This document shows, one piece after another, positions 920 to 49,222 of a stretch of DNA of 64,000 nt. The notes beneath the pieces are model-generated. The model saw only the letters and a list, made by a program, of their open reading frames with translations. It was not told the origin of the DNA and did no database searches. The first letter of the stretch is position 1. Every line of letters starts with the position of its first letter. Position numbers and translations under genes: made by a program. This DNA comes from an uncultured Saprospiraceae bacterium (GTDB lineage Bacteria; Bacteroidota; Bacteroidia; Chitinophagales; Saprospiraceae): the NCBI GenBank assembly GCA_937872385.1, contig CALMSO010000047.1:78660-142659 (forward strand), in the 5' to 3' direction.

Positions 920-947
920 GCTATTCGCAATTAGCTATTCGCAATTG
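920..947 (-). repeat. heptamer array (family C on the minus strand)
   Basis: The plus strand reads GCTATTC GCAATTA GCTATTC GCAATTG, which on the minus strand is GCGAATAGC-type. It starts 5 nt after the stop at 915. Confidence 0.75.
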
Positions 948-1013
948 TCCAGATAAGTACCGAAAGATTGTACTCTATTATGAAACTAATTATCTAACCT
1001 AATTAAGCGACTT

Positions 1014-4000
1014 ATGACTTACACTCACTCAAGCCGACGGTTGTTGCTGCTTGTATTGCTGGCAATGACCACTACTATCGCTTTCGCACAAAGGATCAGT
1101 TTCTCCATTAAAGGAACTGTGACCGACGACACCGGCACGCCGCTAATCGGGGTAACCGTGTTGCTGTTGGAACCCAGGTTAGGAACTGTAACCGATGCAA
1201 ATGGCTACTACGACCTCTCCGACGCCGTTGCCGAAGGCACCTACACCTTGCAGGTAAGCTACGTAGGCTACGGCAGCTACAATGAAAGAGTAGCGATTAA
1301 CGCTGCTACTACCAACTTGTTGAAAGACATTCGATTAGGACTTGACATTCTCGAACTCGACCAGATTGTAGTCACTGGCAATACCGCTACTTCTACCCGC
1401 CGCCAATTGGGCAACGCCATCGGCGTAGTAGGGGGTGAAAAACTGCAAAATGCCGGTACCACGAACACGCTCGCCGCCCTCAGCGGCAAAGTAATGGGCG
1501 CACAAATCACCCAAAATGACGGCTACCCGGCCGGAGGCATCTCGGTGCGGCTACGCGGCCCCAGCTCTATCAAAGGCTCAAGCGACCCGCTCTACATCGT
1601 GGACGGAGTAATCGTGGACAACAGCTCCACCAACGTCATCAACCTTAGCGCCGACGCCATGACGACTGGCCTGCAAGGCGGCCAAAACCGTTTAGTGGAC
1701 ATCAACCCCAACGACATCGAGCGCATCGAAGTGCTCAATGGTGCGGCGGCAGCGGCCATCTATGGCTCGCGGGCTTCCAACGGGGTGGTGCAAATTTTTA
1801 CCAAACGCGGCAAATCAGGCAAGCCAACTATTGAATTTAGCACTTCGGCTACGCACAGTTCGCTGCGCAATCGCGTGTTTCTGACCCAGCATCCGGAGCG
1901 TTTCGGCGTGCCCGGCAACGACCGCCTCGAACTGGCACAAGACCGGCTCACCATCTTGCTACACCTCGGACCCTCGGAGGCGGTATTGCAACAACAGGGA
2001 GTAAATTTTGCAAAAGTGGGGCCCGTCAACCGTTTGCTCATTACAGACAAATACCCAGTACAACGCTATGATTATCAAGATGACATATTCACTGGTGCTT
2101 GGGGTACGGACAATCACCTCTCCGTATCAGGTGGCAACGACAAAACGAACTACTTCGCGTCTTTTGGTTATTTCAACAACGACGGTATTATCAAAAACAC
2201 CAATTTTACCAAATACACCGGGCGCTTGCGCCTGAATCAGACCCTTGCTAACTGGGCTTCCATGTCGGTAGGCTTGTCGTACAATTACAGCGCCAGCCAA
2301 GATATGCCCAATGGCAACAACTTTTTCAGCCCGATCAGTACCATGTTCATCATTGACAATGTCTGGAACCTGAACGACCGCGATGCCGGCGGCAACCTCC
2401 GCCAGGTAGAACAGGTGCGGGTCAATCCGCTTTCGGTGCTCGAGACATTCGACCTGACGCAACGCACCAACCGTACCATCAGCGACATTCAGTTCAACCT
2501 GTACCCCGTTCAAGGTTTGAATATCAATGCAATATTCGGTGTGGACAACTACTCGCTGGTGGGCAACGAATTTCGCCCGCGCCTGCCCTATCCGGATGTA
2601 GCTGCAGGCTTCTTCCCCGATGGCTACATTGGCTATGCTACTAATAATGTAACCTTGCTCAACCATGACCTGACCGCCACTTACAATCGTACCCTGAACG
2701 AGAAAATCAGCTCGACCACTACGGCTGGCTATCAGATACAATATGACCGAAATCACTTTACCTCGCAAGAAGGACGCGACCTGGCACCTTTTGTACAAAC
2801 CATTTCGGCGGCAGCCAACCTCTTTACACTGCCTCGGCAAAGCATCGCAGAGCGCAGCATCTGGGGGTATTTCCTACAACAGACTTTCAGCTACAACGAG
2901 CAGCTTTTCGTGACCTTAGCCGGTCGTGTTGACGGCTCCTCAGCTTTTTCGGCTGACAACCAGAATATTTTCTACCCCAAAGCCAGCTTCAGCTACGTAC
3001 TGTCGGATTACTGGAAAGGTACCGCCTTGCAAAAGTCCCTCGGAACGCTCAAAGTGCGCGCTTCGTACGGGCAGGCGGGCAACCTCACCGGTATCGGGCC
3101 TTTCGATCGCTTCGACAACTTCCTGCTGAGCCAGCTCACGGGGCTGCCCTCGATTGCACCTTCGCGCCTGCTGGCCAACCCAGACGTGCGGCCGGAAATC
3201 ATGACCGAGTTTGAGGCAGGTGCCGATATGTCTTTCCTCAACAGCCGCGTGGGTCTGAATGTAACCTATTACAATCAGAAAATAGATGATTTGCTGCTCG
3301 ATCGCCAGTTGCCCCCAACCGTGGGTGGCTCCAGTATTGTAACCAACGTGGGTAGCATGACCAACAATGGTATCGAACTGATGCTGCAAGTAGCTCCGAT
3401 ACGTACCAAAGACCTCGGCTGGGACTTGACGGCGCTCTGGTCGCGCAACCGAAATGAAGTGTCTGGCATTGACGGCGTACTGTTCCTGCGGGGTAGCGAC
3501 GGCACACAAGCGGCTATCAGCGGCGAGCAATTTGGTCTTTTCTTCGGACGGTACTACGCTCGTAATAACGCAGGCAACCTGTTGCTCACCGGACAGGGCT
3601 TGGCACAACCCGAACGCGGCCTGATCATTGCAGAAAGCCAGTACAATCCTGCCAATTTGCCGGAAGGCGCCCAACGCGACCGCATCTATCGGGCGGCGGG
3701 CAGCTACTATGTACCGGTACGCGACGCCAACGGACAACCCACGGGCACGGAACTCCTGCGCGTGATTGGCGACCCCAATCCCGACTGGTTTGGCTCGTTC
3801 TCTTCTGATTTGCGATACAAAAAACTGAGCTTCCGCTTCCAGTTTGATGCCTTCTGGGGCGCTGATATTTACAACTGGAACCGCATCACCGGCAACAACG
3901 TAGGGCATGGCAAAATAGCCGAGCAGGAGCTAAAAGGCGAGGTAGCGCGCGGTTATGTCGCTTCAATTGCGGGCGGCGTTACGGGGCAGCGCATCCAGGA

Positions 4001-4253
4001 AGAGCATATTGAAGATGCTTCGTGGATCAAGCTAAGAGAAATTGCGCTAAGCTACAATGTAGGCAACGTCGGTAAAGTATTGCAAAACGTTAATATCAGC
4101 TTGATCGGACGCAACCTGCTCTCTTTCGATAGCTATGAAGGCTTCGATCCAGAGACCAATTCGGCCGGGCAAAACGACCGCGTACGCGGCGATGACTTTG
4201 GCAATGTGCCCATTCCGCGTACCATTCAGTTTAGAATTGGTGCCAAATTCTAG
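1014..4253 (+). CDS. SusC/RagA family TonB-linked outer membrane receptor
   Basis: Signal peptide ends AFAQ. It has a carboxypeptidase-regulatory-like N-domain (IKGTVTDDTGTPLIGVTVLL), a plug motif (IERIEVLNGAAAAAIYGSRASNGVVQIF) and a C-terminal barrel ending RIGAKF. A SusD-like gene follows directly. Confidence 0.9.
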   Translation: MTYTHSSRRLLLLVLLAMTTTIAFAQRISFSIKGTVTDDTGTPLIGVTVLLLEPRLGTVTDANGYYDLSDAVAEGTYTLQVSYVGYGSYNERVAINAATTNLLKDIRLGLDILELDQIVVTGNTATSTRRQLGNAIGVVGGEKLQNAGTTNTLAALSGKVMGAQITQNDGYPAGGISVRLRGPSSIKGSSDPLYIVDGVIVDNSSTNVINLSADAMTTGLQGGQNRLVDINPNDIERIEVLNGAAAAAIYGSRASNGVVQIFTKRGKSGKPTIEFSTSATHSSLRNRVFLTQHPERFGVPGNDRLELAQDRLTILLHLGPSEAVLQQQGVNFAKVGPVNRLLITDKYPVQRYDYQDDIFTGAWGTDNHLSVSGGNDKTNYFASFGYFNNDGIIKNTNFTKYTGRLRLNQTLANWASMSVGLSYNYSASQDMPNGNNFFSPISTMFIIDNVWNLNDRDAGGNLRQVEQVRVNPLSVLETFDLTQRTNRTISDIQFNLYPVQGLNINAIFGVDNYSLVGNEFRPRLPYPDVAAGFFPDGYIGYATNNVTLLNHDLTATYNRTLNEKISSTTTAGYQIQYDRNHFTSQEGRDLAPFVQTISAAANLFTLPRQSIAERSIWGYFLQQTFSYNEQLFVTLAGRVDGSSAFSADNQNIFYPKASFSYVLSDYWKGTALQKSLGTLKVRASYGQAGNLTGIGPFDRFDNFLLSQLTGLPSIAPSRLLANPDVRPEIMTEFEAGADMSFLNSRVGLNVTYYNQKIDDLLLDRQLPPTVGGSSIVTNVGSMTNNGIELMLQVAPIRTKDLGWDLTALWSRNRNEVSGIDGVLFLRGSDGTQAAISGEQFGLFFGRYYARNNAGNLLLTGQGLAQPERGLIIAESQYNPANLPEGAQRDRIYRAAGSYYVPVRDANGQPTGTELLRVIGDPNPDWFGSFSSDLRYKKLSFRFQFDAFWGADIYNWNRITGNNVGHGKIAEQELKGEVARGYVASIAGGVTGQRIQEEHIEDASWIKLREIALSYNVGNVGKVLQNVNISLIGRNLLSFDSYEGFDPETNSAGQNDRVRGDDFGNVPIPRTIQFRIGAKF

Positions 4254-4349
4254 GAAATTGTGGATAGTGCGTTGTTCCATTATTAGAACAATAGCCATTC
4301 CCGGCACCGAGCGTTTTGCATTTATTTCAAAAATTTCAATTGGAAAATC

Positions 4350-5660: not shown

Positions 5661-5704
5661 TATTCGGCATCAATAAAGCTACTATTTCACACACATATTT
5701 TTGG

Positions 5705-5739
5705 TCTCCTCGTCTTTTTCAGGCGGGGAGATTTTTTTT
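5705..5739 (+). terminator. Rho-independent terminator after the SusD gene
   Basis: Stem TCTCCTC (5705-5711) pairs with GGGGAGA (5725-5731) with one mismatch, followed by T8 (5732-5739). Confidence 0.6.
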
Positions 5740-5814
5740 GCTAAATACCCTGCAAAAGAAGTAGCCTTGCTATCTTGTGCGACCAGCCGTAGCATCACCC
5801 AAAACGGATTATGC

Positions 5815-6762: not shown

Positions 6763-6860
6763 GGTGTATTAAAGGTTGAATTAAAATACCCAATTAACTG
6801 ATAGTCAGTTTATTAAAATGCACTTTTTTCGATTATAAAACCCTTAAAATAACTGCTCAT

Positions 6861-7814: not shown

Positions 7815-8025
7815 AACCGCGAATTCGTACGAAATTTTCGGCAAAATTACAAAAAGGATGGAAAGCTAACCGTTTTTTAGAACTTACATTGCCAATAAGC
7901 AAAGCGCCGATAACAGCTTTCTAACATAGAAATACATCTTTCTTTGGCTTTGGATACTGTTTTTTTACAAATGGGCGTTACTCCGGAAAGATTTTATCGT
8001 CTAATACAACAAAACGACAACCAGA

Positions 8026-9561
8026 ATGAAAATACAAACGCTTACACTTTTTTTGTGTTGCCTGCTGGCCGTGGGCTACGCCCAGGAGTCGGATTCGCGG
8101 CATTCTATCGGAGCGAAGTTGCTCTTTATTGACTACGGGCGGCCCAATTCGATAGATACCCTGAGTATCACCAATGGTTTGGAGCTGATGTACAGTTACC
8201 GTATCAATGATTTAATCAGCGTTGCCGTGCCGCTCAAGGTCGGCGTCGCCAATGTAATGGGCGATATCAACAACCGCAATGTGACCAGCATAGACGGTGT
8301 GCTGCATTTCAATTTTCTGAAACCGAGTAGCCCGGTAATTCCTTACATCTTTGGTGGGGCAGGTATTGTAGCCGAGCGCGATGCGGGTTCCAACCTGCAA
8401 ATTCCCGGCGGCTTAGGTGCGCACTTTCGCGTAGCTGGCAATTCCTATATCAATGTGCAGGGCGAATTTCGCTATTCGATGCAGGAAGATCGCAACAACG
8501 CTCAATTGGGCGTAGGCTACATTTATCGCCTTGGCAAACAAAAAGATAGCGACGGCGACGGCATCCCTGATGCATTAGACGAGTGCCCCAACGAACCGGG
8601 GCCTAAGGCCACCAATGGCTGCCCCGACCGCGATGGCGACGGCGTGCCGGATAAGGACGATCGCTGCCCCGACCAGCCCGGCCCAGCGGCTACTAACGGC
8701 TGCCCGGATACGGATGGGGACGGTTTCCCCGATCACCTCGACGAGTGCCCGACCATACCTGGCACCTTACGCGGCTGCCCCGATAGCGATGGCGACGGCA
8801 TTCCGGACAAAGACGACCAGTGCCCAGATGAGCCGGGTCCCGCTGCTACCAAAGGTTGCCCCGACCGCGATGGCGACGGTGTGCCCGATCGTTTTGATGA
8901 TTGTCCGGACGAACCCGGCCCCGCTGCCAACAATGGCTGTCCGGTAGCCGACCGCGATAACGACGGTATTCCCGATATCAATGACCGCTGCCCCGACGAG
9001 CCAGGCCCGGCAGCAACCCAGGGCTGCCCCGACCGCGATGGCGATGGCGTACCAGATATTGACGACCGCTGCCCCGATACGCCTGGCCCAGCAGAAACCC
9101 GCGGCTGCCCCGATAGCGATGGCGATGGCGTACCCGATGATATAGACCTCTGTCCGGATGAACCCGGCTTGGCCAGCAATAAAGGCTGCCCAGAACTAAA
9201 AGCCGAGGTAAAAGAAGTGCTGGAATTTGCGATGCGAGCCGTGCAATTTGAAACTGGACGCGCTACCCTCAAGGCAGAATCTTATCCAGTACTCGACCAG
9301 ATTATCCAGATTATGCGGCAATACCCTGTGTATGCACTGCGTATTTCCGGGCATACCGACAATGTAGGCGCTGACAGTCGTAACCAAATTTTGTCCGAGC
9401 AACGCGCTAAAGCTTGTTATGAATACCTCGCTTCCTCTGGCATTGTTGCCGACCGGATGAGTTTTGCTGGCTTTGGTCGTACGCGTCCTATTGCTGATAA
9501 TAACACTACGGAAGGACGTCGCCTCAATCGGCGCGTGGAGTTTGAACTGTATATAAAGTAA
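8026..9561 (+). CDS. OmpA family outer membrane protein with thrombospondin type 3 repeats
   Basis: It has a signal peptide, an N-terminal beta-barrel-like region, eight DxDGDGxPDxxDxCPdePGP repeats and a C-terminal OmpA domain (ISGHTDNVGADSRNQILSEQRAKA, NRRVEFEL). Confidence 0.9.
   Translation: MKIQTLTLFLCCLLAVGYAQESDSRHSIGAKLLFIDYGRPNSIDTLSITNGLELMYSYRINDLISVAVPLKVGVANVMGDINNRNVTSIDGVLHFNFLKPSSPVIPYIFGGAGIVAERDAGSNLQIPGGLGAHFRVAGNSYINVQGEFRYSMQEDRNNAQLGVGYIYRLGKQKDSDGDGIPDALDECPNEPGPKATNGCPDRDGDGVPDKDDRCPDQPGPAATNGCPDTDGDGFPDHLDECPTIPGTLRGCPDSDGDGIPDKDDQCPDEPGPAATKGCPDRDGDGVPDRFDDCPDEPGPAANNGCPVADRDNDGIPDINDRCPDEPGPAATQGCPDRDGDGVPDIDDRCPDTPGPAETRGCPDSDGDGVPDDIDLCPDEPGLASNKGCPELKAEVKEVLEFAMRAVQFETGRATLKAESYPVLDQIIQIMRQYPVYALRISGHTDNVGADSRNQILSEQRAKACYEYLASSGIVADRMSFAGFGRTRPIADNNTTEGRRLNRRVEFELYIK
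8551..9181 (+). repeat. in-frame coding repeats (8 thrombospondin type 3-like calcium-binding units of about 25 aa) inside the OmpA gene
   Basis: DSDGDGIPD, DRDGDGVPD, DTDGDGFPD, DSDGDGIPD, DRDGDGVPD, DRDNDGIPD, DRDGDGVPD and DSDGDGVPD, each followed by a CPDEPGP-type segment. Confidence 0.85.
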
Positions 9562-9572
9562 AAACACCATAC

Positions 9573-9611
9573 AAAATGACCGGCGGGCTAAGAAACGCGT
9601 CGGTCATTTTT
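9573..9611. terminator. bidirectional hairpin terminator between the convergent ompA-like and purE genes
   Basis: AAAATGACCGGCG (9573-9585) pairs with CGCGTCGGTCATTTT (9596-9610). An A-run lies upstream and a T-run downstream. The purE stop codon sits in the loop. Confidence 0.55.
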
Positions 9612-10082: not shown

Positions 10083-10107
10083 GTATAATTTTTTTATTGG
10101 CTGTTGG

Positions 10108-10857
10108 TCAATAATAGATTTCGCGGGCTTCTTGTCCTACGTAAAATGGCAATATCCATCCGGCACGGATGCCAAAGAGCAAATCGAGGCGCGGCTCGGT
10201 ATCGCTGCGGCGGGTATCAAAGTTGAAACTGCGGCGGTTGCGCGTGAATGCTTGGGTACATTCTATACCGGCAAAAAAATTGATACGCTTGTCGGTGCTC
10301 AACATTTGATACCCAAGAAACTGATTGAATGCCAGTCCATTACTCAAGCGGTCGTAGCCTTTCTGATAGTCGCCAATGAGCTGCGGCACCACCCGGAAGG
10401 GGTCTTCTTGAATGCGAATTTTGTGTTGTAAAATACCGGCACTGAGCGTAGCCCGAATGCCCGCGCGCGGATTGCGATTCGAAAGTGCAAATAATTTGCC
10501 CATCAACAAACCGGCGTAGAGTCCTCGCTGGCGCAATTCAATTTCAGCATACGACTTGTCATTGCCAATAATGAAGCCTTCTGGAGTTCTCAGCGGTGCT
10601 ATCACATCTTCCTTCACCTCGGTTCCGAAAAGATAAAATCCTTCTACGCCGAAAATGAAATTGCCTTTTGCCGTCATAAACTCCAGCCCGCCTCCTACGC
10701 TCATGCTTGGCCCAAAGCGTGCAGCCAAATCGCCGCCGGGCAACTGGCCGCTGTAGGTCATATTCAGCAAAATGGCATTGCCCTTGTTCAAATCAGAAAC
10801 TTGGGCTAAGGCCGTTATTGAAAAGCAAGTACCCACTATCCACAACCAGTTTCGCAT
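10108..10857 (-). CDS. predicted outer membrane beta-barrel protein, function unknown
   Basis: It has a signal peptide (ITALAQ), alternating-hydrophobicity strands and a C-terminal aromatic residue (...EIYY). Confidence 0.5.
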   Translation of the reverse strand: MRNWLWIVGTCFSITALAQVSDLNKGNAILLNMTYSGQLPGGDLAARFGPSMSVGGGLEFMTAKGNFIFGVEGFYLFGTEVKEDVIAPLRTPEGFIIGNDKSYAEIELRQRGLYAGLLMGKLFALSNRNPRAGIRATLSAGILQHKIRIQEDPFRVVPQLIGDYQKGYDRLSNGLAFNQFLGYQMLSTDKRINFFAGIECTQAFTRNRRSFNFDTRRSDTEPRLDLLFGIRAGWILPFYVGQEAREIYY

Positions 10858-10946: not shown

Positions 10947-11882
10947 GTGAAAAAAGTACTCATCACCGGTGCGGCCGGTTTTCTGGGTTCGCACCTTTGC
11001 GACCGCTTCATCCGCGAAGGATACCACGTCATAGCCATGGACAATTTGCTCACCGGAAGCATGGATAATATCCAGCATTTGTTGCCGCTTGAGCATTTCG
11101 AATTTTATCATCATGATGTAACGAAATACGTACACCTCCCGGGACAGCTCGATTATATTTTGCACTTTGCCTCGCCAGCCAGCCCAATTGATTATCTGAA
11201 AATGCCTATTCAAACGCTGAAAGTAGGCGCTTTGGGCACGCACAATCTGCTCGGACTTGCTTTAGCCAAAAAGGCGCGCATTTTGGTGGCTTCTACCTCT
11301 GAGGTGTATGGCGATCCGCTGCTGCACCCACAGTCGGAGGAGTACTGGGGCAATGTGAACCCGGTGGGGCCGCGTGGCGTATATGACGAAGCGAAGCGTT
11401 TCTTAGAGGCAATCACGATGGCGTATCACAATTTTCATGGCGTAGAAACCCGAATTGTGCGTATTTTCAATACCTACGGCCCCCGGATGCGGGTGGAGGA
11501 CGGACGCGCGCTGCCAGCGTTTTTTTCGCAGGCTATTCGCGGCGAAGGCTTGACGGTGTTTGGCGATGGCTCACAAACGCGCTCTTTTTGTTATGTGGAC
11601 GACCTCGTGGAAGGCATTTACCGCCTATTGCTAAGTGACTATCACCTGCCGGTGAATATTGGCAATCCGGATGAAATCACGGTGAAGCAATTAGCAGAGG
11701 AAATTCTGGCATTAGTCAATAATCCTGCGGCCAAAATCATTTACAAACCTTTGCCTGCCGATGACCCAAAGGTGCGCCAGCCTGATATTACCAAAGCCCG
11801 CGAAATACTTGGCTGGGAGCCTCGTGTGCCTCGCGTTGAAGGCTTGGTGACTACGCATGATTATTTTCGCAAGGTGGTGTGA
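10947..11882 (+). CDS. UDP-glucuronate decarboxylase (UDP-xylose synthase)
   Basis: Motifs [26 protein letters not shown] and YDEAKR (SDR Y-x3-K). The protein is about 310 aa. Confidence 0.85.
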
Positions 11883-11928
11883 TGGGGTTGATAGGGGGAT
11901 GGGGTTGATAGGGGAATAGGGAAATAAG
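11881..11928 (+). repeat. G-rich tandem unit array (family A) abutting the stop codon
   Basis: GATGGGGTTGATAGGGG occurs twice, followed by AATAGGGAAATAAG. The UXS stop TGA (11880-11882) is part of the first unit. Confidence 0.85.
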
Positions 11929-14585: not shown

Positions 14586-14587
14586 TG

Positions 14588-14629
14588 GCGATTTGCTTTT
14601 CGCGGTTTGCAGTTTGTGGTTTGCTATAA
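14588..14629 (-). repeat. heptamer array (family C, GCRAAYA-like on the minus strand)
   Basis: The plus strand reads GCGATTT GCTTTTC GCGGTTT GCAGTTT GTGGTTT GCTATAA. It starts 3 nt after the CoA-transferase stop and lies between convergent genes. Confidence 0.75.
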
Positions 14630-14637
14630 AACGAGTA

Positions 14638-18167: not shown

Positions 18168-19163
18168 TTGGAAAACCAAATCCGACAATACCTGACAAAA
18201 AAAATCGAAACGGTCGCGCCGTCCGACTTCGACAGCTTGGCTATGGAAGTTTTCCAGTATCAAGCGCAGCGCAATATGCTGTACGCGCAGTACCTCCGGC
18301 TATTGCAAAAGCCACCTGAATCCGTCACTGCGCCCGCCGATATTCCATTTTTGCCCATTCAATTTTTCAAAAACCAAACCATTCAAACCGGCACTTGGAC
18401 TCCTGCCGACACTTTCAGCAGCAGCGGCACTACCGGCCAAATCACCAGCCGCCACGCCGTGCGCGCCCCAGGTTTTTACCTGCGCAATACGCGCCGGGGT
18501 TTCGAGCATTTCTATGGCAATTTAGCAGATTATTGCGTACTGGCGTTGCTTCCGGCGTACTTGGAGCGGCCCGGCTCGTCTTTGGTGGCTATGGCTGATT
18601 ATTTCATCCAGCAATCCCGGTACGCACCAAGCGGCTTTTTTTTATATAATACGAACGAATTGCTGAAAGTAGTGCAAATTTGCCAAAAAAAACAATGGCC
18701 TGTGCTCCTGCTGGGCGTTACTTTTGCTTTGCTTGACTTGGCGGAGCAACGTCCGACCGATCTGAGCGGCATCACCATCATGGAAACGGGCGGCATGAAA
18801 GGGCGGCGCCGCGAAATGATTCGATCCGAGCTACACGAAGTGCTTTGCAGCGCTTTTCGGGTGCAGACCATTCATTCTGAATACGGCATGACGGAGTTGT
18901 TTTCGCAGGCTTATTCCAAGGGGCAGGGGTTGTTTTATCCAGCGCCGACCATGCGCGTGTATGCCCGCCAGATTACCGATCCGCTGGCCGCGGAAATGCC
19001 CGGCAAAACCGGTGCGCTCAATATCATTGACTTAGCCAATCTCGATACAATCAGTTTTATCGCTACCGACGACCTCGGCAAAGTGTATCCCAACGGCTCT
19101 TTTGAAGTACTCGGCCGACTCGACAACAGCGACCTGCGCGGCTGCAATCTGATGGTGCAATGA
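18168..19163 (+). CDS. LuxE/PaaK-like adenylate-forming acyl-protein synthetase family protein
   Basis: SSGTTGQITSRH adenylation P-loop-like motif, GGMKGRR, and a YGMTE-type motif. It uses a TTG start. Confidence 0.6.
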   Translation: MENQIRQYLTKKIETVAPSDFDSLAMEVFQYQAQRNMLYAQYLRLLQKPPESVTAPADIPFLPIQFFKNQTIQTGTWTPADTFSSSGTTGQITSRHAVRAPGFYLRNTRRGFEHFYGNLADYCVLALLPAYLERPGSSLVAMADYFIQQSRYAPSGFFLYNTNELLKVVQICQKKQWPVLLLGVTFALLDLAEQRPTDLSGITIMETGGMKGRRREMIRSELHEVLCSAFRVQTIHSEYGMTELFSQAYSKGQGLFYPAPTMRVYARQITDPLAAEMPGKTGALNIIDLANLDTISFIATDDLGKVYPNGSFEVLGRLDNSDLRGCNLMVQ

Positions 19164-19170: not shown

Positions 19171-19199
19171 GATGATAGACGATAGATTTTAGATTTTAG
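19171..19199 (-). repeat. heptamer array (family D, TCTNNNA on the minus strand)
   Basis: The plus strand reads GATGATAGACGATAGATTTTAGATTTTAG, which on the minus strand is TCTAAAA TCTAAAA TCTATCG TCTATCA. It lies 8 nt after the stop at 19163. Confidence 0.75.
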
Positions 19200-19474
19200 C
19201 CGTATCACCCATGGCCCGTCCTGAAATAGCTTGCAAAAAAAAATTAATCCCTCAACAAACGTTTTCGGTGCCTGATACCGTTGTAGTACAAAAATTCTAC
19301 ATTTTTATTGTAGCAAACTGTATCGAATCAAACTGCTGCGCATTCTATCAGAAGCGCTTATTGACCAGAACAAAAACACCCCGATGGGTTGTCTAAATAA
19401 ATGAGCGGGCAGTTTTAAAGCCTCTTAAAAAAAACAAAGCGACCAGCATTCACCATTTAAAAATTACAGCATCC

Positions 19475-23499: not shown

Positions 23500-23519
23500 A
23501 AAAAAATTCATTTTGCAAT

Positions 23520-23559
23520 ATGCCGGATGTGGCAAGAACATGGCGCGTCCGGCATTTTT
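23520..23559 (+). terminator. Rho-independent terminator
   Basis: ATGCCGGA (23520-23527) pairs with TCCGGCAT (23548-23555), with a 20-nt loop and then TTTT. Confidence 0.6.
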
Positions 23560-23876
23560 CATACAGATTTCAATAAAAGTAATGGGACATGGTTATTTGT
23601 TCATTGGGACAGTTTTATACCAATGTAACCATGAACTGGTTATCAGTGAACGTTGAACTGTGTTGATAATCAACCAGTTGTAAAACCATAGCATACGTCA
23701 CAACTCATTGAAGTTGGCACTATATTACCATCCAAATACTTATGAATTTTTTATATTCAAAATAACGATGTATATGTTGCGAATTACATGGCTCAATACT
23801 AGCCCATTGAACGGTTCGCTGCCTGCCCTTGGAAATGGTACTAAGCTGGTTCGAGAAGTATCGCCAGCGGTAGTGG

Positions 23877-25178: not shown

Positions 25179-25201
25179 GCCAAAGCTTAGGACATAAACA
25201 A

Positions 25202-25240
25202 AGCCCCAGCGAAACTACTTTCACCGGGGCTTCTCTTTTG
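25202..25240 (+). terminator. probable Rho-independent terminator after the HMG-CoA lyase gene
   Basis: AAGCCCC (25202-25208) pairs with GGGGCTT (25227-25233), followed by a T-rich tail CTCTTTT. Confidence 0.45.
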
Positions 25241-25366
25241 TACCATTTTCAATTGAAAATAACGCACCTATCCATTTTCAAAAGCCTGTCTATCAATTAT
25301 TTACAGAATCGAAAATCGAATTTCGCAAATTGTAAATGGTATTATAGCTTACTGTACCTATGTAGC

Positions 25367-30050: not shown

Positions 30051-30092
30051 AGTTTTATTATAAAAAATGTGATTTCAAACCGTCGAGCACAA

Positions 30093-30187
30093 TAATAGAC
30101 TTTAGATAATAGATGATAGATTTTAGACCCCTTTAACTTATTCCCCTATTCATCCCATTCCCTTATATCCCTATTTTTCCTATTCTC
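30093..30187 (-). repeat. composite tandem-unit array: family A (G-rich on the minus strand, 30128-30187) followed by family D heptamers (30093-30127)
   Basis: The plus strand reads TAATAGA CTTTAGA TAATAGA TGATAGA TTTTAGA, then CCCC..TTCCCCTATTCATCCCATTCCCTTATATCCCTATTTTTCCTATTCTC. It lies between corA and the next minus-strand gene. Confidence 0.8.
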
Positions 30188-30220
30188 AAAATAGCAATGT
30201 TCCATCATTTATAACGTTTT

Positions 30221-35746: not shown

Positions 35747-35830
35747 GCCGAAGTGGCGGAACTGGTAGACGCGCTGGATTCAAAATCCAGTGATGGCAAC
35801 ATCGTGTGGGTTCGAGTCCCACCTTCGGTA
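35747..35830 (+). tRNA. tRNA-Leu (anticodon CAA)
   Basis: Acceptor stem GCCGAAG/CTTCGGT, D-arm GCGGAACTGGTAGACGC, anticodon loop TTCAAAA, a long variable arm and T-arm GGGTTCGAGTCCC. No CCA is encoded. Confidence 0.9.
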
Positions 35831-35873
35831 CTCATTTTTGGCAAAGCGACTTTCAACACCCTACTTTACAACA

Positions 35874-35957
35874 GCCGAAGTGGCGGAATTGGTAGACGCG
35901 CACGTTTCAGGGGCGTGTGTCTTCACGGGCGTATGGGTTCGAGTCCCATCTTCGGCA
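35874..35957 (+). tRNA. tRNA-Leu (anticodon CAG)
   Basis: Acceptor stem GCCGAAG/CTTCGGC, anticodon stem CACGT/GCGTG with loop TTCAGGG, a long variable arm and T-arm GGGTTCGAGTCCC. Confidence 0.9.
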
Positions 35958-35970
35958 CTACTAGATTAGA

Positions 35971-36001
35971 AGCTCAATGCACAGCGCATCGGGCTTTTTT
36001 T
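35971..36001 (+). terminator. Rho-independent terminator after the tRNA-Leu pair
   Basis: AGCTCAATGC pairs with GCATCGGGCT (one mismatch, one G-T), with loop ACAGC and then T7. Confidence 0.6.
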
Positions 36002-36246
36002 GTTGGCGCATCCATCTATTTTCTCTTCCGGTTTATTCATTTTTATTTCTTGCAATTGTCAATTAATTTAAATAATATCTTTATCTATAAAAATTTGTTA
36101 ATCAAACTTTTGGAAAACTAACGTTCCAAAAAAATTCCTATTCAAAGGTAGTGCTTTCGCGCCAATGAAGGTTTTCCAGCTACAACGAGGAGCAGAATTG
36201 AACCGAATGTATTAATTTTACATTAATTCTCTGTAAACTTTTCTGC

Positions 36247-40078: not shown

Positions 40079-40130
40079 GTGCAATTGGCAAAAGCAATTT
40101 TATGATACTATAAGTAAAATTTGTAAACAT

Positions 40131-40778: not shown

Positions 40779-40904
40779 GCAATCAGTGCCCGTTTGGTAA
40801 AATTGATATCTTGGCTTAGCACAATTGCCCGGTATCCTCCAAATGCTCGGACGTAATTGTTTTTTTAGTAAAAAAACACAAATCACTGATTATCAACAGA
40901 TAAA

Positions 40905-40963
40905 TTTTAGATAATAGCCGATAGAAGTTAGATGCGGTCATCCCTCTAAACCCTCTAAACCCT
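40905..40963 (-). repeat. composite array: family B (GGGTTTAGAG x2 on the minus strand, 40942-40963) then family D heptamers (40905-40932)
   Basis: The plus strand reads TTTTAGA TAATAGC CGATAGA AGTTAGA ... CCCTCTAAA CCCTCTAAA CCCT. Confidence 0.8.
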
Positions 40964-41028
40964 GTTCCAAATAACCAATAACAATATCCCATTATTTATC
41001 TCGAAATCCGATACTCAAAAATAAAATT

Positions 41029-41931: not shown

Positions 41932-41970
41932 GCAAACACCGCCGTTTGGAATGTTTTTTTACAGCCAAAA

Positions 41971-43188: not shown

Positions 43189-43238
43189 CGTTGTTGTTTT
43201 ATGGTTTCAAAGTTTCACTGTTGTATGGCTATATGTTT

Positions 43239-43294
43239 CCCCCTATTCCCCCTATTCCCCCTATTCCCCCTATTCCCCCCATTCAACCCATCCC
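43239..43294 (-). repeat. family A array: four perfect GGGGGAATA units on the minus strand plus a GGGATGGGTTGAATGG core
   Basis: The plus strand has CCCCCTATT x4 (43239-43274), then CCCCCC ATTCAACCCATCCC. It begins 2 nt downstream of the LolA-like stop and lies 50 nt upstream of the permease ATG. Confidence 0.9.
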
Positions 43295-43296
43295 TA

Positions 43297-44052
43297 CTAC
43301 CTTACCCGCTTCATATTTTGCACCGAAAAAAAATCCGTTTTAATCGGTTTGTCAAATTCGAGCGTACTGTATTCAATAATGGTTTTGTGGTTCGGTTTAT
43401 CAGCCGGGATGACTTCGAGGCGAGCGGGCAGCAGCTTGCCCCCGAGGGTTTTTACATCTTTGCCGAGCATGGTGTTTACTAAATAGCCATCTTCATCATA
43501 AAACTCCGTTTTTAGCTGCATAAAGTCCTGTTTATCAATCCAAAGCAAGACCTTTCCCCAAACTACGGCCGCCTTTTCGGTGGGTACCAATTCGAGGCGA
43601 TAGCAGTCGCGGCCGTCTATTTTTTCTGAGCCAAGCAGTTTGTGAATATAGTCATTCACCGTTGATGACTCGCGCACGAGGTCGTCGTTGGTAAAATCCG
43701 AACCCATCCACGATTGCGACATCATCGAGGGCGGCATTTTAATCGTGCGGTCAATGGTGGGCTGCCAGTTCCAGATTTCCCGGTTGCGCTTGAGGAAAGC
43801 CGTGCCTCGGTCGCGGGCGGGCGCGGTGACGAGTATCAGGCTGTACGCATCGCCGAGCGACCACGACTTTAAGCTCATTTCGCGTTGCCACGAAGGCCGC
43901 ACAATGGTCATTTTGATTTCTGCAATGCTCGATTGACCCCGCAGTTTTTCATCTGCTTTCGCTACAATCTCCTTTGCCGAAAGCCCACTTTGCGCCGTTC
44001 CATTCAGCAAGCCGACGACACAAAGCGCCAGCACCATCAGGTAAGTTCTCAT
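43297..44052 (-). CDS. outer membrane lipoprotein-sorting (LolA-like) protein
   Basis: It has a signal peptide. The SWSLGDAYSLILVTAPARDRGTAFLK region is typical of LolA-like proteins that accompany FtsX permeases. Confidence 0.65.
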   Translation of the reverse strand: MRTYLMVLALCVVGLLNGTAQSGLSAKEIVAKADEKLRGQSSIAEIKMTIVRPSWQREMSLKSWSLGDAYSLILVTAPARDRGTAFLKRNREIWNWQPTIDRTIKMPPSMMSQSWMGSDFTNDDLVRESSTVNDYIHKLLGSEKIDGRDCYRLELVPTEKAAVVWGKVLLWIDKQDFMQLKTEFYDEDGYLVNTMLGKDVKTLGGKLLPARLEVIPADKPNHKTIIEYSTLEFDKPIKTDFFSVQNMKRVR

Positions 44053-44132
44053 TGTTTTTTGTTTGTTTATTGTTATTTGTATTCAATTGATTTTCAAAAA
44101 TTTATGACTGAACGGTTTCGTGGTTGCGTAGT

Positions 44133-44255
44133 TATTCCCCAATTTGTCCTATTTCCCCATTCAACCCATCAATCCATTTCCCCTATACACCCTATTCCCC
44201 CTATACCCCTATTCCCCCATACACCCCATACACCCTATTCCCCCCCTATCCTATA
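44133..44255 (-). repeat. family A array (G-rich on the minus strand), overlapping the last codons of the TetR gene
   Basis: The plus strand has C-rich units TTATTCCCC, CCCTATACA, CCCTATTCC, CCCTATACC, CCTATTCCC, CCATACACC and others. The TetR C-terminus YRIGGE is encoded by repeat units. Confidence 0.85.
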
Positions 44256-44825
44256 TCTTTCCAAAATCAATTCTTTCATTACCGCCAAGGGATAGTCTTC
44301 GCCCAATTGCAAATATTGCAGCATCACGCCGTCGGTCATAGCACTGTAGAGCAGCAGCTCCCCCAGTGGATTCGCTACACCGAGGCGCTCAAACAAAGGC
44401 AGCATTTTAGCAATTGCTGCTTCTTCCTGGACTTTGGTGACGGGGCGCAGCATCTCCTGCACATCGGGCTGAAAGGCCAAAGATGTAAGCAGTCGCCAAT
44501 TGTGCTCGTTGGATTGTACCCAAGCGACCGTGCGGTTGAGTAGGGCTTCCAACTGCTCGAAAGGCACTTCGCTGACCGCCAGCGCGTCGTCCAGCAGCTG
44601 CATACCGGTAGCAATCACCTCGGTCATAATTTCAACCAACAGGGCTTCCTTGCTCTCGAAGTAATTGTACATCAAGCCTTTAGAAACACCCGCCGCTTTC
44701 GCAATGGCACTGATGGAAGTGCTGTGATAACCTTGTCGGCCAAACAACTCCAGCGCCGTTTGCTTGATCGTATCTCGGCTTCGCTGCCGGATGGACTCAA
44801 ATTGTTCTTTTGTTTTGGGCGACAT
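44235..44825 (-). CDS. TetR/AcrR family transcriptional regulator
   Basis: The N-terminal HTH (ALELFGRQGYHSTSISAIAKAAGVSKGLMYNYFESKEAL) is present. Confidence 0.85.
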   Translation of the reverse strand: MSPKTKEQFESIRQRSRDTIKQTALELFGRQGYHSTSISAIAKAAGVSKGLMYNYFESKEALLVEIMTEVIATGMQLLDDALAVSEVPFEQLEALLNRTVAWVQSNEHNWRLLTSLAFQPDVQEMLRPVTKVQEEAAIAKMLPLFERLGVANPLGELLLYSAMTDGVMLQYLQLGEDYPLAVMKELILERYRIGGE

Positions 44826-44837
44826 AATTTTTTGAAT

Positions 44838-44919
44838 GAACGGTTGGTCAAAAATAATTCCATTGCACGGTTATTCTCAATCTTGCTCGACCAACGAACG
44901 CTTTTTTTCGACCAACGGC
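44838..44919. promoter_or_regulatory. candidate TetR operator: three GACCAAC boxes upstream of the tetR operon
   Basis: TCGACCAACG occurs at 44887-44896 and 44908-44917 (21-nt spacing). An inverted copy GAACGGTTGGTC lies at 44838-44849, 13 nt from the start codon. Confidence 0.4.
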
Positions 44920-45020
44920 AAAGATTATTCGCTGAATGTTGCAAATGCAAGATCGGGATGGTGCTCTATTCTAACAATGACGATGGTCACTTTACGACAA
45001 GTCTGATACCATAATTTTGC

Positions 45021-46172: not shown

Positions 46173-46360
46173 GTGTTTTCCACGCATTTGTTTTGTTTTC
46201 GATTCGTATTTGCTTATCAATCTTCCAGTAAACCACTACTTCAATAAACCGTTCACCCTTAATCCAGAAATTTGTAGCTTTGCCATGCAAGATACCAAAC
46301 CCGGCAAAATAGACAAGTCATCAAACGCGTTTAGAAAGCTGGCTGTGTAAATCAGTAAAC

Positions 46361-47272
46361 ATGAGTGTGATTGTAAAAAACCTGACCAAAATATATGGCA
46401 CCCAGCGCGCAGTGGACCATGTGAGCTTTGAGGCTAAACCCGGCGAAGTGCTGGGATTTCTGGGTCCAAATGGTGCAGGCAAGACCACCACGATGAAAAT
46501 CGTGACCTGCTTCATCCCCCAAACCGACGGCGAAGTGCGCGTTTGTGGCTACGATGTGGCCAAAGATACTATGGCCGTGCGGCAGCAAATTGGTTATCTG
46601 CCAGAGCACAACCCTTTGTACAACGACTTGTACGTCAAGGAGTATCTTGGTTTTGTAGCCCGCTTGCACGGGTTGCGCAATACCCGCCAGCGCGTGGACG
46701 AGCTGATACAAATGACCGGGCTGGAGCGCGAGCAAGGCAAAATCATCGGTGCTTTGTCCAAAGGTTATCGGCAACGCGTAGGGCTGGCCCAAGCCATGCT
46801 GCACGATCCGCAGGTGCTGATTCTGGATGAACCTACATCTGGGCTGGACCCCAATCAATTGGCAGAAATTCGCAACCTGATTAAACAATTGGGCCGGCAA
46901 AAAACGGTCATTTTTTCTACGCACATCATGCAGGAGGTGCAGGCGCTTTGCGACCGGGTTGTCATTATCAACCGAGGTAAAATTGTAGCCGACGATTCTA
47001 TCGAAACTTTACAAAACCGCATCAAGGGCGCGACCATTATTACAGTAGAATTTGCAGAAAAAACAGATAAAAAGCTGCTGTCTGGTATCTCTGGCGTGCA
47101 ACAAGTGAAAGACCTCGGCAAAAATCGGTGGCAGCTCATCGCGCCAGCTACTACCGACATACGGTCGGGCATAAGTGCTTTTGCCGCTAAGCACCAATTG
47201 ACCTTACTTGAAATGCGCAAGGAAACCTCCAGCGTGGAAGATGTGTTTCACCAATTGACTGCTGACCAGTAA
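46361..47272 (+). CDS. gldA: gliding motility-associated ABC transporter ATP-binding subunit
   Basis: Walker A GPNGAGKTTT, signature LSKGYRQR, Walker B LILDEP. gldF and gldG lie downstream. Confidence 0.75.
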   Translation: MSVIVKNLTKIYGTQRAVDHVSFEAKPGEVLGFLGPNGAGKTTTMKIVTCFIPQTDGEVRVCGYDVAKDTMAVRQQIGYLPEHNPLYNDLYVKEYLGFVARLHGLRNTRQRVDELIQMTGLEREQGKIIGALSKGYRQRVGLAQAMLHDPQVLILDEPTSGLDPNQLAEIRNLIKQLGRQKTVIFSTHIMQEVQALCDRVVIINRGKIVADDSIETLQNRIKGATIITVEFAEKTDKKLLSGISGVQQVKDLGKNRWQLIAPATTDIRSGISAFAAKHQLTLLEMRKETSSVEDVFHQLTADQ

Positions 47273-47314
47273 AAAACCATTGATTGGCTTGTTGCAAAAC
47301 CTTGATTATCCTAT

Positions 47315-47989
47315 ATGAAATTCAGATTTTGGCTACTTTCTGTTGCTTGTTTGTTCATTATCGGGCGGGCCGCTGCCTATTCCGACAGCCTATTGTTGAC
47401 CAAAAACTTCAAGTTTCAGGATGGTATCTATCTGGATTTTACCGATTTGCAACAAAACCGCCCCACCTACCGCTGGGAAGAAGTAAGCGCGCGCATGGCC
47501 ACCAGCGATGAAGGCTTCATTGCACAAGTAGAGCGTATCCGCAAAGACCAACAACTACTCGACCTCAGCCAAGTCTGGGGTATTTGTATCGGAGGCATTC
47601 CTTACATCCGGCTGCCGGAGGGCGAAGTAACCGAGTCAGCAACGGTATTTGCGGGTTTGCGCGTGCGCGGCAAAATTTCCTATTTCAAATACAAGACCAT
47701 CATTACCGAAATGAAAGAAGTAAAAGCCTACAATCCGCTCAATGGCCGAGCCTTTCGGCAAGGCATCGTGCCCGTGGAACGCACCGTGGAGCGCGAGCAG
47801 ATGCTGCACTGGGAAGATGGTACTATCGTGGATTTTACCGTCGCTAACTTTCTCGACTGGATCCAGGACGATCGCCAGCTCTGGCGGGCTGTGCGCGACC
47901 TATCGCCGGAGGATGCCGAAGAGAAGCTCTTTCAGTGCCTACTGATTTATGCCGATCGGAGCAAGGTGTATCTGAAAACGGGGGATTGA
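47315..47989 (+). CDS. secreted protein of unknown function
   Basis: It has a signal peptide (WLLSVACLFIIGRAAAYS). No family recognised. Confidence 0.5.
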   Translation: MKFRFWLLSVACLFIIGRAAAYSDSLLLTKNFKFQDGIYLDFTDLQQNRPTYRWEEVSARMATSDEGFIAQVERIRKDQQLLDLSQVWGICIGGIPYIRLPEGEVTESATVFAGLRVRGKISYFKYKTIITEMKEVKAYNPLNGRAFRQGIVPVERTVEREQMLHWEDGTIVDFTVANFLDWIQDDRQLWRAVRDLSPEDAEEKLFQCLLIYADRSKVYLKTGD

Positions 47990-48200
47990 TGGGGAATAGG
48001 GGTATAGGGGGTATAGGGGGAATAGGGTGTATAGGGGAATAGGGTTTAGAAGGGTTAGAAGGTAGAGGGGTTAGAGGGGGGCGAACAGCAAACAGCGAAC
48101 AGCAAATAGCGAACAGCGTCCCGCCCTAAAGTCTGGCATCTCAAAATCTGGCATCTGGCATCTATCATCTATTATCTAATATCTAAAATCTGGCATCTAA
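47981..48200 (+). repeat. four-module composite tandem-unit array (A 47981-48044, B 48042-48081, C 48081-48118, D 48132-48200)
   Basis: A is GGGGAATAG/GGGGTATAG-type units. B is GGGTTAGAA/GGGTTAGAG units. C is GCGAACA GCAAACA GCGAACA GCAAATA GCGAACA. D is TCTGGCA TCTCAAAA TCTGGCA TCTGGCA TCTATCA TCTATTA TCTAATA TCTAAAA TCTGGCA TCTAAAA. Confidence 0.9.
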
Positions 48201-48225
48201 AAAATTTAAAAACAAGCAGAATCGT

Positions 48226-48957
48226 ATGCGCAGTATTTTTCTCAAGGAAGTGAATACTTTTTTTAGTTCGTTAATTGGCTATATCGTCATCGGGGTGTTT
48301 CTTACGGCGCTGGGATTGGTGTTGTTTGTGTTTCCTGACACCAGTTTATTACAATATAATTATGCCACACTCGATCAGTTATTTAGTGTAGCGCCCATGA
48401 TTTTTGCTTTTTTGATTCCGGCTATTACTATGCGCTCCTTTGCCGAAGAGCAGCAAACCGGCACCATCGAACTATTGGCGACCAAACCGGTGAGTGACTT
48501 AGCCATCGTGCTGGGTAAATTTTTTGCCTGTCTTATGTTAGTCGTTTTCGCTATTCTACCTACGCTATTGTATTATTACACGGTGTATCAACTCGGTGCA
48601 CCCAAGGGCAATCTCGATTCGGGCGCTATTGCTGGTTCTTACATTGGGCTGGTGCTGCTCGGCGGCGCGTTTGTGTCTATCGGTTTGTTCGCTTCTTCGC
48701 TCACAGCCAATCAGATTGTCGCTTTTATTTTCGCTACATTTCTGTGTTTTTTCATTCACTGGGGCTTCGATTTATTTAGTCGGCTACCCATTTTTGTTGG
48801 CAAATCCGATGTGCTGGTACAAATGCTCGGTATAGAATATCATTACAAATCCATTAGCCGGGGCATCATAGATTCGCGGGATGTTATTTACTTTATTTCA
48901 CTCACTGCATTTTTTATTATATTAACACTCACTTCAATGGAAAGGCGAAAATGGTAA
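48226..48957 (+). CDS. gldF: gliding motility-associated ABC transporter permease
   Basis: N-terminal IFLKEVNTFFSSLIGYIVIGVFL, an ABC-2-type six-TM layout, and position between gldA and gldG. Confidence 0.75.
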   Translation: MRSIFLKEVNTFFSSLIGYIVIGVFLTALGLVLFVFPDTSLLQYNYATLDQLFSVAPMIFAFLIPAITMRSFAEEQQTGTIELLATKPVSDLAIVLGKFFACLMLVVFAILPTLLYYYTVYQLGAPKGNLDSGAIAGSYIGLVLLGGAFVSIGLFASSLTANQIVAFIFATFLCFFIHWGFDLFSRLPIFVGKSDVLVQMLGIEYHYKSISRGIIDSRDVIYFISLTAFFIILTLTSMERRKW

Positions 48958-49192
48958 TGTGAATTATTATGAAATTATTACACAAATTAAACCACAAAAT
49001 ATTAAATGTAAAATGTAAAAGTATCGCACGATAAATAATGGAACATTGTTATTTAAAAAATCTTGGTCGTGGGTCAAATCAGTTGTTTTACTTTTTAGAT
49101 GTTGCAAACCTTAAAGATTTATGACATTTTATACACCATTCTGACCCATTACCAAAATTTTGATAAAAATTTCATTGCCAATTATTCGTGTT

Positions 49193-49222
49193 GCGAAAAG
49201 CGAACAGCCAATAGCAAACAGC
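49193..49222 (+). repeat. heptamer array (family C)
   Basis: GCGAAAA GCGAACA GCCAATA GCAAACA GC, located 45 nt upstream of the gldG start. Confidence 0.75.

Follow-up and report, generated by a model that had tools for sequence, protein, structure and literature searches.

For decades, cyanobacteria, xanthomonads, Beggiatoaceae and a few Bacteroidetes have been known to carry intergenic repeats of the heptamer type. According to the summary in PMC4679880, the survey of long simple sequence repeats (LSSR) by Mrazek et al. (2007) describes units of 5–11 nt, most commonly heptamers, and proposes polymerase slippage as their source. MacGregor (2015; PMC4679880) reported heptamer repeats from between the genes of Beggiatoaceae, cyanobacteria and five Bacteroidetes, including spacers that mix different heptamers and close relatives without the repeats, and proposed a lineage-specific binding protein for the TAACTGA repeats; a preprint on Nostoc finds that heptamer repeats affect promoters modestly and raises a binding protein as a speculation. 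The G-quadruplex (G4)-forming GGGNATC repeats of Rehm et al. (2015; PMC4692102) are non-coding, enriched in the gaps that separate aligned open reading frames (ORFs), as well as transcribed in Xanthomonas; a regulatory role was not found for them. Here, we analyse arrays of abutting 7–9-nt units in a 64,000-nt stretch of DNA from an uncultured Saprospiraceae bacterium (the window; contig CALMSO010000047.1, positions 78,660 to 142,659), for which an earlier note, made from the letters alone, had proposed four unit families, written here as A (GGGGWATAG), B (GGGTTTAGA), C (GCRAAYA) and D (TCTNNNA). The class of bacterial intergenic repeats of which these arrays are members has been described before; what is new is the Saprospiraceae as a family and a polarity in the composition of the arrays, which runs from the stop codon of the upstream gene to the start codon of the downstream gene.

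As in LSSR, the units are 7–9 nt long, the arrays exceed chance length, heptamers are the commonest period and slippage is the origin proposed; Tandem Repeats Finder (TRF) calls arrays of period 7–9 in the window and their units exceed shuffle expectation. The window arrays differ from LSSR in being degenerate and compound rather than pure, and the Saprospiraceae are not among the repeat-rich genomes of the survey that PMC4679880 names. Family A shares with the GGGAATC repeats of Xanthomonas and the GGGGA(C/T)T repeats of Nostoc (PMC4692102) one G-tract per unit, usually four or more units and a bias towards non-coding DNA. The preference for co-directional spacers, the under-representation in divergent ones, the sense-strand position nearer to the 5′ ORF and the occasional inverted pairs are likewise common to our arrays and the Rehm-type repeats, whereas the 9-mer GGGGWATAG that holds a TAG stop, the Bacteroidota host and the G-poor families that then follow in the same spacer set family A apart, as does a G4 that is here predicted only. 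Families C and D resemble the cyanobacterial short tandemly repeated repetitive (STRR) and TAACTGA heptamers (PMC4679880) in being heptamers found at many intergenic sites, often just upstream of starts. Spacers that combine different heptamers (Microcystis, Gramella, Aequorivita, Elizabethkingia) and close relatives without repeats at the same spacer are further likenesses to the TAACTGA type; in contrast, the unit sequences are unrelated, A and B consist of 8–9-mers, and a composition polarity from stop to start is not in PMC4679880. With repetitive extragenic palindromic (REP) sequences, bacterial interspersed mosaic elements (BIME) and intrinsic terminators the arrays share intergenic, 3′-proximal sites within operons, and inverted arrays in relatives give comparable hairpins, but the window arrays have no palindromes, U-tract or conserved element boundaries. 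The window units are presumably unrelated to the STRR consensus heptamers and the host is a member of the Saprospiraceae, so the arrays are analogous to STRR rather than members of them. Our literature search found no paper tying Saprospiraceae to such repeats. The suggestion that they represent an undescribed class nevertheless has to be withdrawn, since heptamer-dominated LSSR and mixed Bacteroidetes heptamer assemblages (PMC4679880) and stop-adjacent, sense-strand G4 repeats (PMC4692102) have already been described.

Tandem arrays are present at all ten sites that the earlier note had listed: TRF calls them at 920, 11881, 14602, 19183, 30092, 40942, 43237, 44156–44243 and 47991–48202, and the heptamers at 49193 can be read in the sequence. 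The assignment of these sites to four recurring families stands in part. Compared with dinucleotide shuffles, from which the expected counts of the units were taken, GGGGWATAG has 14 exact matches (0.45 expected) at four spacers, a fifth A site at 30130–30190 being degenerate; two successive C units (GCRAAYA x2, at most one mismatch) occur seven times (0.71 expected), only at 48081 and 49193; and the D pattern TCTNNNATCTNNNATCT (TCTNNNA x2.4) occurs eight times (0.01 expected), at 30104 and 48147. Families A, C and D are thus far above chance. Family B amounts to three exact copies of GGGTTTAGA in two spacers, and with one mismatch allowed its count in the window (16 versus 20 expected) is not above chance. 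Strict membership gives four spacers and one degenerate site for A and two spacers each for B, C and D. The site at 19171 is a good family D array with one mismatch; the D part of the site at 40905 is a degenerate look-alike, and the sites at 920 and 14588 resemble family C only loosely and on the opposite strand, so that the assignment at these last three is loose. In an unbiased 8-mer census, A-rich words predominated and nothing further emerged. The intergenic, non-coding location of the arrays is borne out, with 18 of 21 A matches, 4 of 4 tandem-C matches and 11 of 11 tandem-D matches falling in the 10.7% of the window that is intergenic. The proximity to stop codons also holds, seven of the ten sites lying within 10 nt of one (920, 11881, 14588, 19171, 43296, 44246 and 47981); the exceptions are 30187 (34 nt), 40905 and 49193.

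The arrays were then considered in a family-wide set that comprises the window and 80 Saprospiraceae loci around gldF (at most 20 kb each, 1.29 Mb in total; individual loci are cited by L numbers). In the 65 co-directional spacers with arrays, the median distance from the stop codon to the first array is 4 nt and that from the last array to the start codon is 42 nt, the arrays being nearer the stop in 48 spacers and nearer the start in 17 (p = 1.5e-4). The GC skew of the arrays on the sense strand runs from +0.47 in the stop-proximal third of the spacer to −0.71 in the start-proximal third and is correlated with spacer position (Spearman rho −0.61, p = 1e-7; −0.60 without the window), whereas spacers without arrays have skews of only +0.04 and −0.12. 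The trend is also present in solo arrays of both gene orientations; in convergent and divergent spacers, of which there are few, no significant skew trend was detected. Stop-proximal arrays contain 29% G and 10% C, with stop triplets commoner on the sense than on the antisense strand, and close all three reading frames in 16 of 34 cases on the sense strand versus 3 of 34 on the antisense strand. Start-proximal arrays contain 3% G and 26% C, and their density of ATG, GTG and TTG is 0.007 on the sense strand versus 0.097 on the antisense strand, a difference that is partly biased by the ORF caller. At gldF ends anchored by homology, G makes up 8% of the sequence upstream of the start where arrays are present versus 15% where they are not, and 28% versus 20% of the sequence downstream of the stop.

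In the window, the polarity is exemplified by the A/B–C–D order and by G-free arrays before starts at 44052 and 43188. The fixed order of modules to which the earlier note drew attention, A/B then C then D, does hold at all three composite sites, where it has a chance probability of about 1/16 given free orientation and order, but it is the composition polarity of co-directional spacers seen across the family, not the signature of a composite element with four modules. The polarity provides a quantitative handle on the repeats and suggests that what translation termination and initiation require acts on them at least as a filter.

Across the family-wide set, arrays cover 42 bp per kb of intergenic DNA versus 3 bp per kb of genic DNA, a 14-fold difference, and occur in 16% of the co-directional spacers, in 18% of the convergent ones and in 11% of the divergent ones, which are longer; period 7 (n = 78) is commoner than periods 8 (n = 25) and 9 (n = 19). 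A 50-kb control from E. coli contains four arrays, all genic and none intergenic. The Saprospiraceae can be added to the list of repeat-bearing groups as a whole family, with arrays in about 15% of spacers and units that turn over between species. Families A, B and C were not found in any of the 80 loci and only D-like units recur; at the same spacers, the closest relatives found (81–88% GldF identity) differ from the window in sequence, which on the terms set by the earlier note tells in part against functional interest. The positional conservation for which sister genomes were to be examined applies to the presence of arrays in many relatives but not to the units. In the conserved spacers shared with the window, many relatives carry arrays of their own, among these spacers the one between the gene for the 224-aa protein (p224) and gldF and the one between gldF and gldG, with units such as (AGCTATC)14, (GACTTYA)n together with (CTAATCA)n, (GAAGTAC)n, (GAAGGCG)n and (CAACCAG)n, and some have no array there at all. 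No relative with a p224 closer than about 73% identity was present among the 5.8 billion proteins searched. In 10 of the 80 relatives, one unit recurs at separate spacers: in L044, (AGCTATC)x14 stands on both sides of the gldF region (9097–9195 and 10730–10832), and in L056 and L057, ACTCAGG/AAGTCCT is found at five sites. These repeats indicate that unit families specific to one genome are general in Saprospiraceae. D-like units (TCTGGCA, TCTAAAG, TAAAATC) are common to several relatives and often lie just upstream of starts. Two such loci are L008, where (TCTGGCA)n at 2840–2871 lies 4 nt upstream of a 303-aa gene, and L208, where an inverted pair, (AGATNNN)n...(TCTAAAG)n at 3985–4045, lies just upstream of a gldA-like gene for an ABC ATPase.

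We favour the reading that the arrays are lineage-specific simple-sequence repeats of the STRR/LSSR type, born by slippage and filtered by position-specific constraints, and give it a probability of about 55%. Arrays of 7–9-nt units would arise and turn over in Saprospiraceae spacers, most likely through replication slippage, and would survive only at places, and in orientations, that leave the flanking genes undisturbed. On the stop side, G-rich or purine-rich units that carry stop triplets would be harmless and may grow up to or over the end of the gene, even replacing its stop codon. On the start side, only G-poor, start-free and unstructured units would be tolerated, so that the leader stays unambiguous for the Shine–Dalgarno-independent initiation of Bacteroidota; initiation in Bacteroidetes depends on low mRNA structure, and AUG is depleted near starts (Baez et al.; PMC6847099). 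A positional filter of this kind would account for the proximity to stops, the sense-strand bias of family A, the order of the modules, the fast turnover and the deficit of arrays in divergent spacers. The quadruplex predicted for this species, or the inverted-array hairpin of relatives, could in addition cap or insulate the upstream message.

Family A is the basis of the quadruplex prediction. Canonical G4 motifs, (G3+N1-7)x3 G3+, number seven in the window (0.69 expected), and five of them are the A arrays. Each of the five arrays lies between co-directional genes supported by Pfam and reads along the sense strand of the upstream one; four touch or contain the stop codon of the upstream gene and the remaining one lies 34 nt off. 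The stop codons of the TetR gene and of the 224-aa gene come from A arrays, and in the latter gene the ancestral stop has been replaced by a TGA inside the array; arrays can shift stop codons, as in the three-codon extension of the 224-aa protein. Minimum free energies (MFE) computed with the quadruplex option of ViennaRNA (gquad) are −24.6 kcal/mol at 11881, −46.9 at 43237, −34.2 at 44133 and −30.0 at 47980, and are 0 for the strand opposite each of these four arrays; the A array at 30187 has a weak predicted G4 (−8.2 kcal/mol). Family B at 40963, with three G3 tracts only, gives no predicted G4. With four or more G-tracts, (GGGGWATAG)n is predicted by folding models to form a G-quadruplex in the sense transcript, or in the non-template DNA, immediately 3′ of the cistron upstream. 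The other 80 loci have few G4 motifs (25 in 1.2 Mb, seven of them intergenic), which makes the quadruplex specific to family A of this species rather than a property of the whole Saprospiraceae.

A scan of metagenomes with GGGGWATAGGGGWATAGGGG as the query found at least 120 contigs (L083–L202) that carry arrays of (GGGGAATAG)n and (GGGGTATAG)n, with GC contents of 31–67% among the matches listed. Of 50 flanked (GGGGWATAG)n arrays, also from among the matches listed, those whose 5′ neighbour shares their strand begin at a median of 3 nt past its stop, and a complementary C-rich array is found downstream of the G-rich one in 12 of the 50 and upstream in none. The C-rich units are imperfect complements, for example CTTACTCCC or CTTATACC. 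Some metagenomic A arrays precede arrays of other units, such as (AATTATCT)n in L116 and (GTAATTG)n in L084.

The G4 prediction bears on a second explanation, namely that the arrays are dedicated cis-acting structures past the stop codon, a quadruplex here and a hairpin in relatives, that serve as an intercistronic attenuator or terminator or block 3′-exonucleases and so set how strongly neighbouring cistrons are expressed relative to each other, while the G-poor arrays form a ribosome landing pad. The size of the predicted G4 energies, confined to the sense strand, is what this explanation would lead one to expect, as are the sense-strand placement of all five A arrays between co-directional genes, which resembles that of the transcribed Xanthomonas repeats (PMC4692102), and the lack of a canonical terminator beside the A arrays. 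Relatives add to it: in the orthologous spacer upstream of gldF, inverted arrays directly past the p224 stop form very strong hairpins, with z-scores of −13.3 in L060, −10.6 in L066, −7.8 in L067 and −4.3 in L039. However, many relatives have at that spacer either no array or a structure-less one, such as (AGCTATC)14 or (CAACCAG)n, G4 motifs are rare in the 80 loci, the rapid turnover speaks against an essential role, and Rehm et al. (PMC4692102) found no regulatory role for their repeats. We regard dedicated structures as possible but doubtful. With the polarity as a guide, one can ask if a quadruplex or hairpin array at a stop codon influences how operons are expressed in bacteria that do without Shine–Dalgarno sequences. 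Pairs of inverted arrays, for example (GGTTGAGGAA)n...(CTCAACCTCC)n, were seen at L060 9885–9995, L066 9870–9995, L067 9915–9995, L039 9910–10000 and L010 6250–6324, with z-scores from −13.3 to −2.3.

Other structures and elements were considered and rejected. Folded without the quadruplex option, two A arrays have MFEs of 0 and −1 kcal/mol and no Watson–Crick structure. A long RNA hairpin in which A/B pairs with D and C forms the loop is drawn by MFE folding, but the z-scores of the whole spacers are −1.0, +0.4 and −0.1, and the duplex energies of the A/B and D arms are at the level of shuffled arms (z −0.21, −0.01 and +0.59). Since the two arrays so folded have no Watson–Crick self-structure and A/B–D complementarity equals that of shuffles, REP and BIME elements are excluded. 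The inverted repeats near the arrays do not surpass further pairs from the same regions and were judged to be due to chance. One of 15 nt (44085–44099/44258–44272, 87% complementary) brackets the A array at 44133–44246, has one arm in the TetR coding sequence and is likewise no better than regional pairs. The lack of palindromes, of terminal inverted repeats above chance and of conserved element boundaries leads us to reject miniature inverted-repeat transposable elements (MITE) as well as REP, in agreement with the earlier note, which had thought MITE, REP and BIME unlikely. It had also set aside clustered regularly interspaced short palindromic repeats (CRISPR), rightly, since these need repeats of about 24–48 nt and unique spacers of similar length, and the units here are 7–9 nt long and abut with no unique spacers. 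A comparison with Rfam covariance models returned two tRNA-Leu genes only, whether the gathering threshold or E ≤ 1 was applied, and hence no match to an array. Candidate intrinsic terminators of the canonical type occur in the window at chance level, and on the relevant strand none coincides with an array. Inspection by eye showed GC-rich hairpins with T runs after them, for example gccccagcgaaactactttcaccggggcttctctttt, at 25200–25245 and 23515–23560, which suggests that the organism also has ordinary intrinsic-terminator-like sites, at spacers without arrays.

That one unit recurs within a genome and units differ between species, a pattern seen in 10 of the 80 relatives' loci, would also be expected if the arrays were binding sites for a lineage-specific protein, either an RNA binder of the S1, cold-shock or RNA-recognition-motif type or a DNA binder, that co-evolves with the unit. 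This hypothesis has been laid out for heptamer repeats in PMC4679880, and the D-type units TCTGGCA and TCTAAAG, common to relatives and often just upstream of starts, fit it. Since no candidate protein is tied to the arrays, units are degenerate within each array, four families would require several binders and family D is found in both orientations relative to genes, we consider such a protein decidedly unlikely. We think it highly improbable that the arrays represent small elements (MITE-like, like REP doublets forming hairpins or like small dispersed repeats) that are mobile or copied by recombination and seed new spacers, since identical 9-mers at four spacers and a 16–17-nt non-tandem core, GATGGG(G)TTGAWWGG, present in four copies always beside A units and in this genome only, are outweighed by the lack of palindromes, terminal inverted repeats beyond chance, target duplications and conserved element boundaries, by a core that occupies either end of the arrays, and by the absence of a recognised transposase among the window genes examined.

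Several observations weigh against slippage followed by a positional filter. Slippage alone fails to explain the presence of identical 9-mers and of the GATGGG(G)TTGAWWGG core at four to five spacers of one genome, or the recurrence of (GGGGWATAG)n in metagenome contigs that, among the matches listed, span 31–67% GC; the shared units and core and this wide recurrence would call for some copying mechanism, or for selection, whether for this particular unit, for a structure or for a binder. No variation in unit number was seen, in a comparison of little power that involves the only other strain, 99.86% identical, with one single-nucleotide polymorphism and no indel in the array. Three of the ten sites (920, 19171 and 40905) are antisense on the strand definition of the earlier note, the convergent spacers, small in number, show no polarity, and the depletion of start triplets owes something to a gene map of simple longest-ORF calls, in which the caller picks the most upstream start. 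Quadruplex formation by the A arrays is, moreover, a prediction from folding models. Going beyond slippage and filtering, one may imagine, as a rather unlikely proposal, that Saprospiraceae, and perhaps other Bacteroidota without Shine–Dalgarno sequences, use fast-evolving repeat modules between cistrons as a two-part punctuation, with a G-rich structured module at the stop, either a quadruplex or the 5′ arm of a repeat hairpin, to cap or attenuate the upstream message, and a G-free, AUG-free landing pad before the start, in which unit number would tune the neighbouring genes and a binder or copying would keep the units uniform.

A large compound array lies upstream of gldF on the + strand. 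It begins with family A at 47980–48054, composed of GGGGAATAG, GGGGTATAG and GGGTGTATAG units and containing the TGA stop of the 224-aa gene (47315–47989); family B follows at 48041–48079 (GGGTTTAGA AGGGTTAGA AGGTAGA GGGGTTAGA GGGG), then family C at 48081–48118, (GCGAACA/GCAAACA/GCAAATA) x5.4, and family D at 48126–48202, with TCTGGCA, TCTATCA, TCTATTA, TCTAATA and TCTAAAA units that end 24 nt upstream of the gldF ATG (48226). The 224-aa protein ends ...VYLKTGD (window 47978–47989) and its nearest orthologues end ...VYLK, that is, three codons (TGD) fewer. Further along the same strand, family C recurs at 49193–49222 (GCGAAAA GCGAACA GCCAATA GCAAACA GC), at a distance of 45 nt upstream from the ATG of gldG (49267). 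Just past the gldF stop, weak additional arrays at 48972–49020, (AAATTATTACAC)x2.8 and (AAAATGT)x3.6, were absent from the earlier note, as was a weak array at 58468–58490, (ATTACAACTAA)x2.1, in the spacer 58399–58496.

The other A arrays are at 11881–11926 on the + strand, where the 17-mer core GATGGGGTTGATAGGGG occurs twice and is followed by GGGGAATAGGGAAATAAG, giving five G-tracts, and on the − strand at 43237–43296, 44133–44246 and, in degenerate form, 30130–30190. The array at 11881 overlaps the TGA stop of an epimerase gene (10947–11882), within the 58-nt spacer before a thioesterase gene. That at 43237–43296 consists of the core GATGGGTTGAATGGGG and then (GGGGGAATA) x5.3 with 97% identity, on the sense strand, and begins right at the TAG stop of a LolA-like gene (43297–44052), upstream of a gene for an FtsX-type permease. 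The array at 44133–44246, also on the sense strand, has GGGGWATAG and GGGTGTATG units, then the core GATTGATGGGTTGAATGGGG; it overlaps the final codons of the TetR gene (44235–44825) and provides its TAG stop. A G-free, CA-rich array absent from the earlier note (44053–44080, − strand; TRF 44052–44074) reads ACAAATA ACAATAA ACAAACA AAAAACA on the sense strand; it lies directly upstream of the ATG of the LolA-like gene and fits the rule that arrays near starts are poor in G. The spacer downstream of CorA holds two arrays, both read on the sense (−) strand: the degenerate A array, GAATAGG AAAAATAGGG ATATAAGGG AATGGG ATGAATAGGGG AATAAG..., 34 nt past the CorA stop codon (30221), and family D at 30092–30127 (TCTAAAA TCTATCA TCTATTA TCTAAAG TCTATTA), 43 nt upstream of the start of a DUF4159 gene (30050).

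Of the remaining sites, all on the − strand, 40900–40966 combines family B (GGGTTTAGA x2.4 at 40942–40963) with subsequent degenerate D units (40900–40937) and is antisense to both flanking + genes, which encode a methyltransferase and a TPR protein. Family D at 19171–19200 (TCTAAAA TCTAAAA TCTATCG TCTATCA), which on the sense strand appears as purine-rich AGATNNN units, begins 8 nt past the stop of a + gene ending at 19163. The degenerate C-like heptamers at 14588–14630 (GCAAACC ACAAACT GCAAACC GCGAAAA GCAAATC; TRF period 7, 75% matches) fill a 52-nt convergent spacer between genes for a CoA-transferase and an RNase T-like protein. The loose C look-alike at 920–946, (GCTATTCGCAATTA) x1.9, in which GCGAATA and GCTAATT alternate on the − strand, was missed by the strict C pattern and begins 5 nt past the stop of a + gene ending at 915. 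In the 12 kb of the same genome beyond the window, no further arrays were found.

By exact protein match, the window is located in the Saprospiraceae metagenome assembly GCA_035324695.1 (contig DAOLBF010000004.1, at about 39838–103837). Contigs from two other assemblies are 99.86–100% identical to the window. The ENA assembly ERZ27240676 contains the full array at 47990–48225, and a Logan contig (SRR2107178) matches its first part exactly and ends inside it, at 48037. Since the one covers the whole large array and the other its first part, the arrays are not an assembly artefact; that the Logan contig stops within the array illustrates how such arrays disrupt short-read assemblies. The window includes gldF, gldG, a gene for a TonB-dependent receptor, one for an OmpA protein with thrombospondin repeats and further typical Bacteroidota genes, and a genome scan with GldF gave matches solely to Saprospiraceae and related metagenome-assembled genomes (top identity 88%). 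According to the gene calls on the identical Logan contig (L207, 1195–3102), the ORF at 67–915 forms the C-terminal portion of a glucosamine-isomerase/PIG-L fusion protein of 635 aa, which begins before the start of the window. The two tRNA-Leu genes are in tandem at 35747–35831 and 35874–35958, with anticodons CAA and CAG, and are overlapped by a spurious 122-aa ORF (35753–36121). A coding tandem repeat of 81 nt at 8611–9138 (6.5 copies, 67% matches) lies within the 511-aa OmpA-family gene at 8026–9561 and, as Pfam marks on this gene in L207 indicate, corresponds to thrombospondin type 3 repeats.

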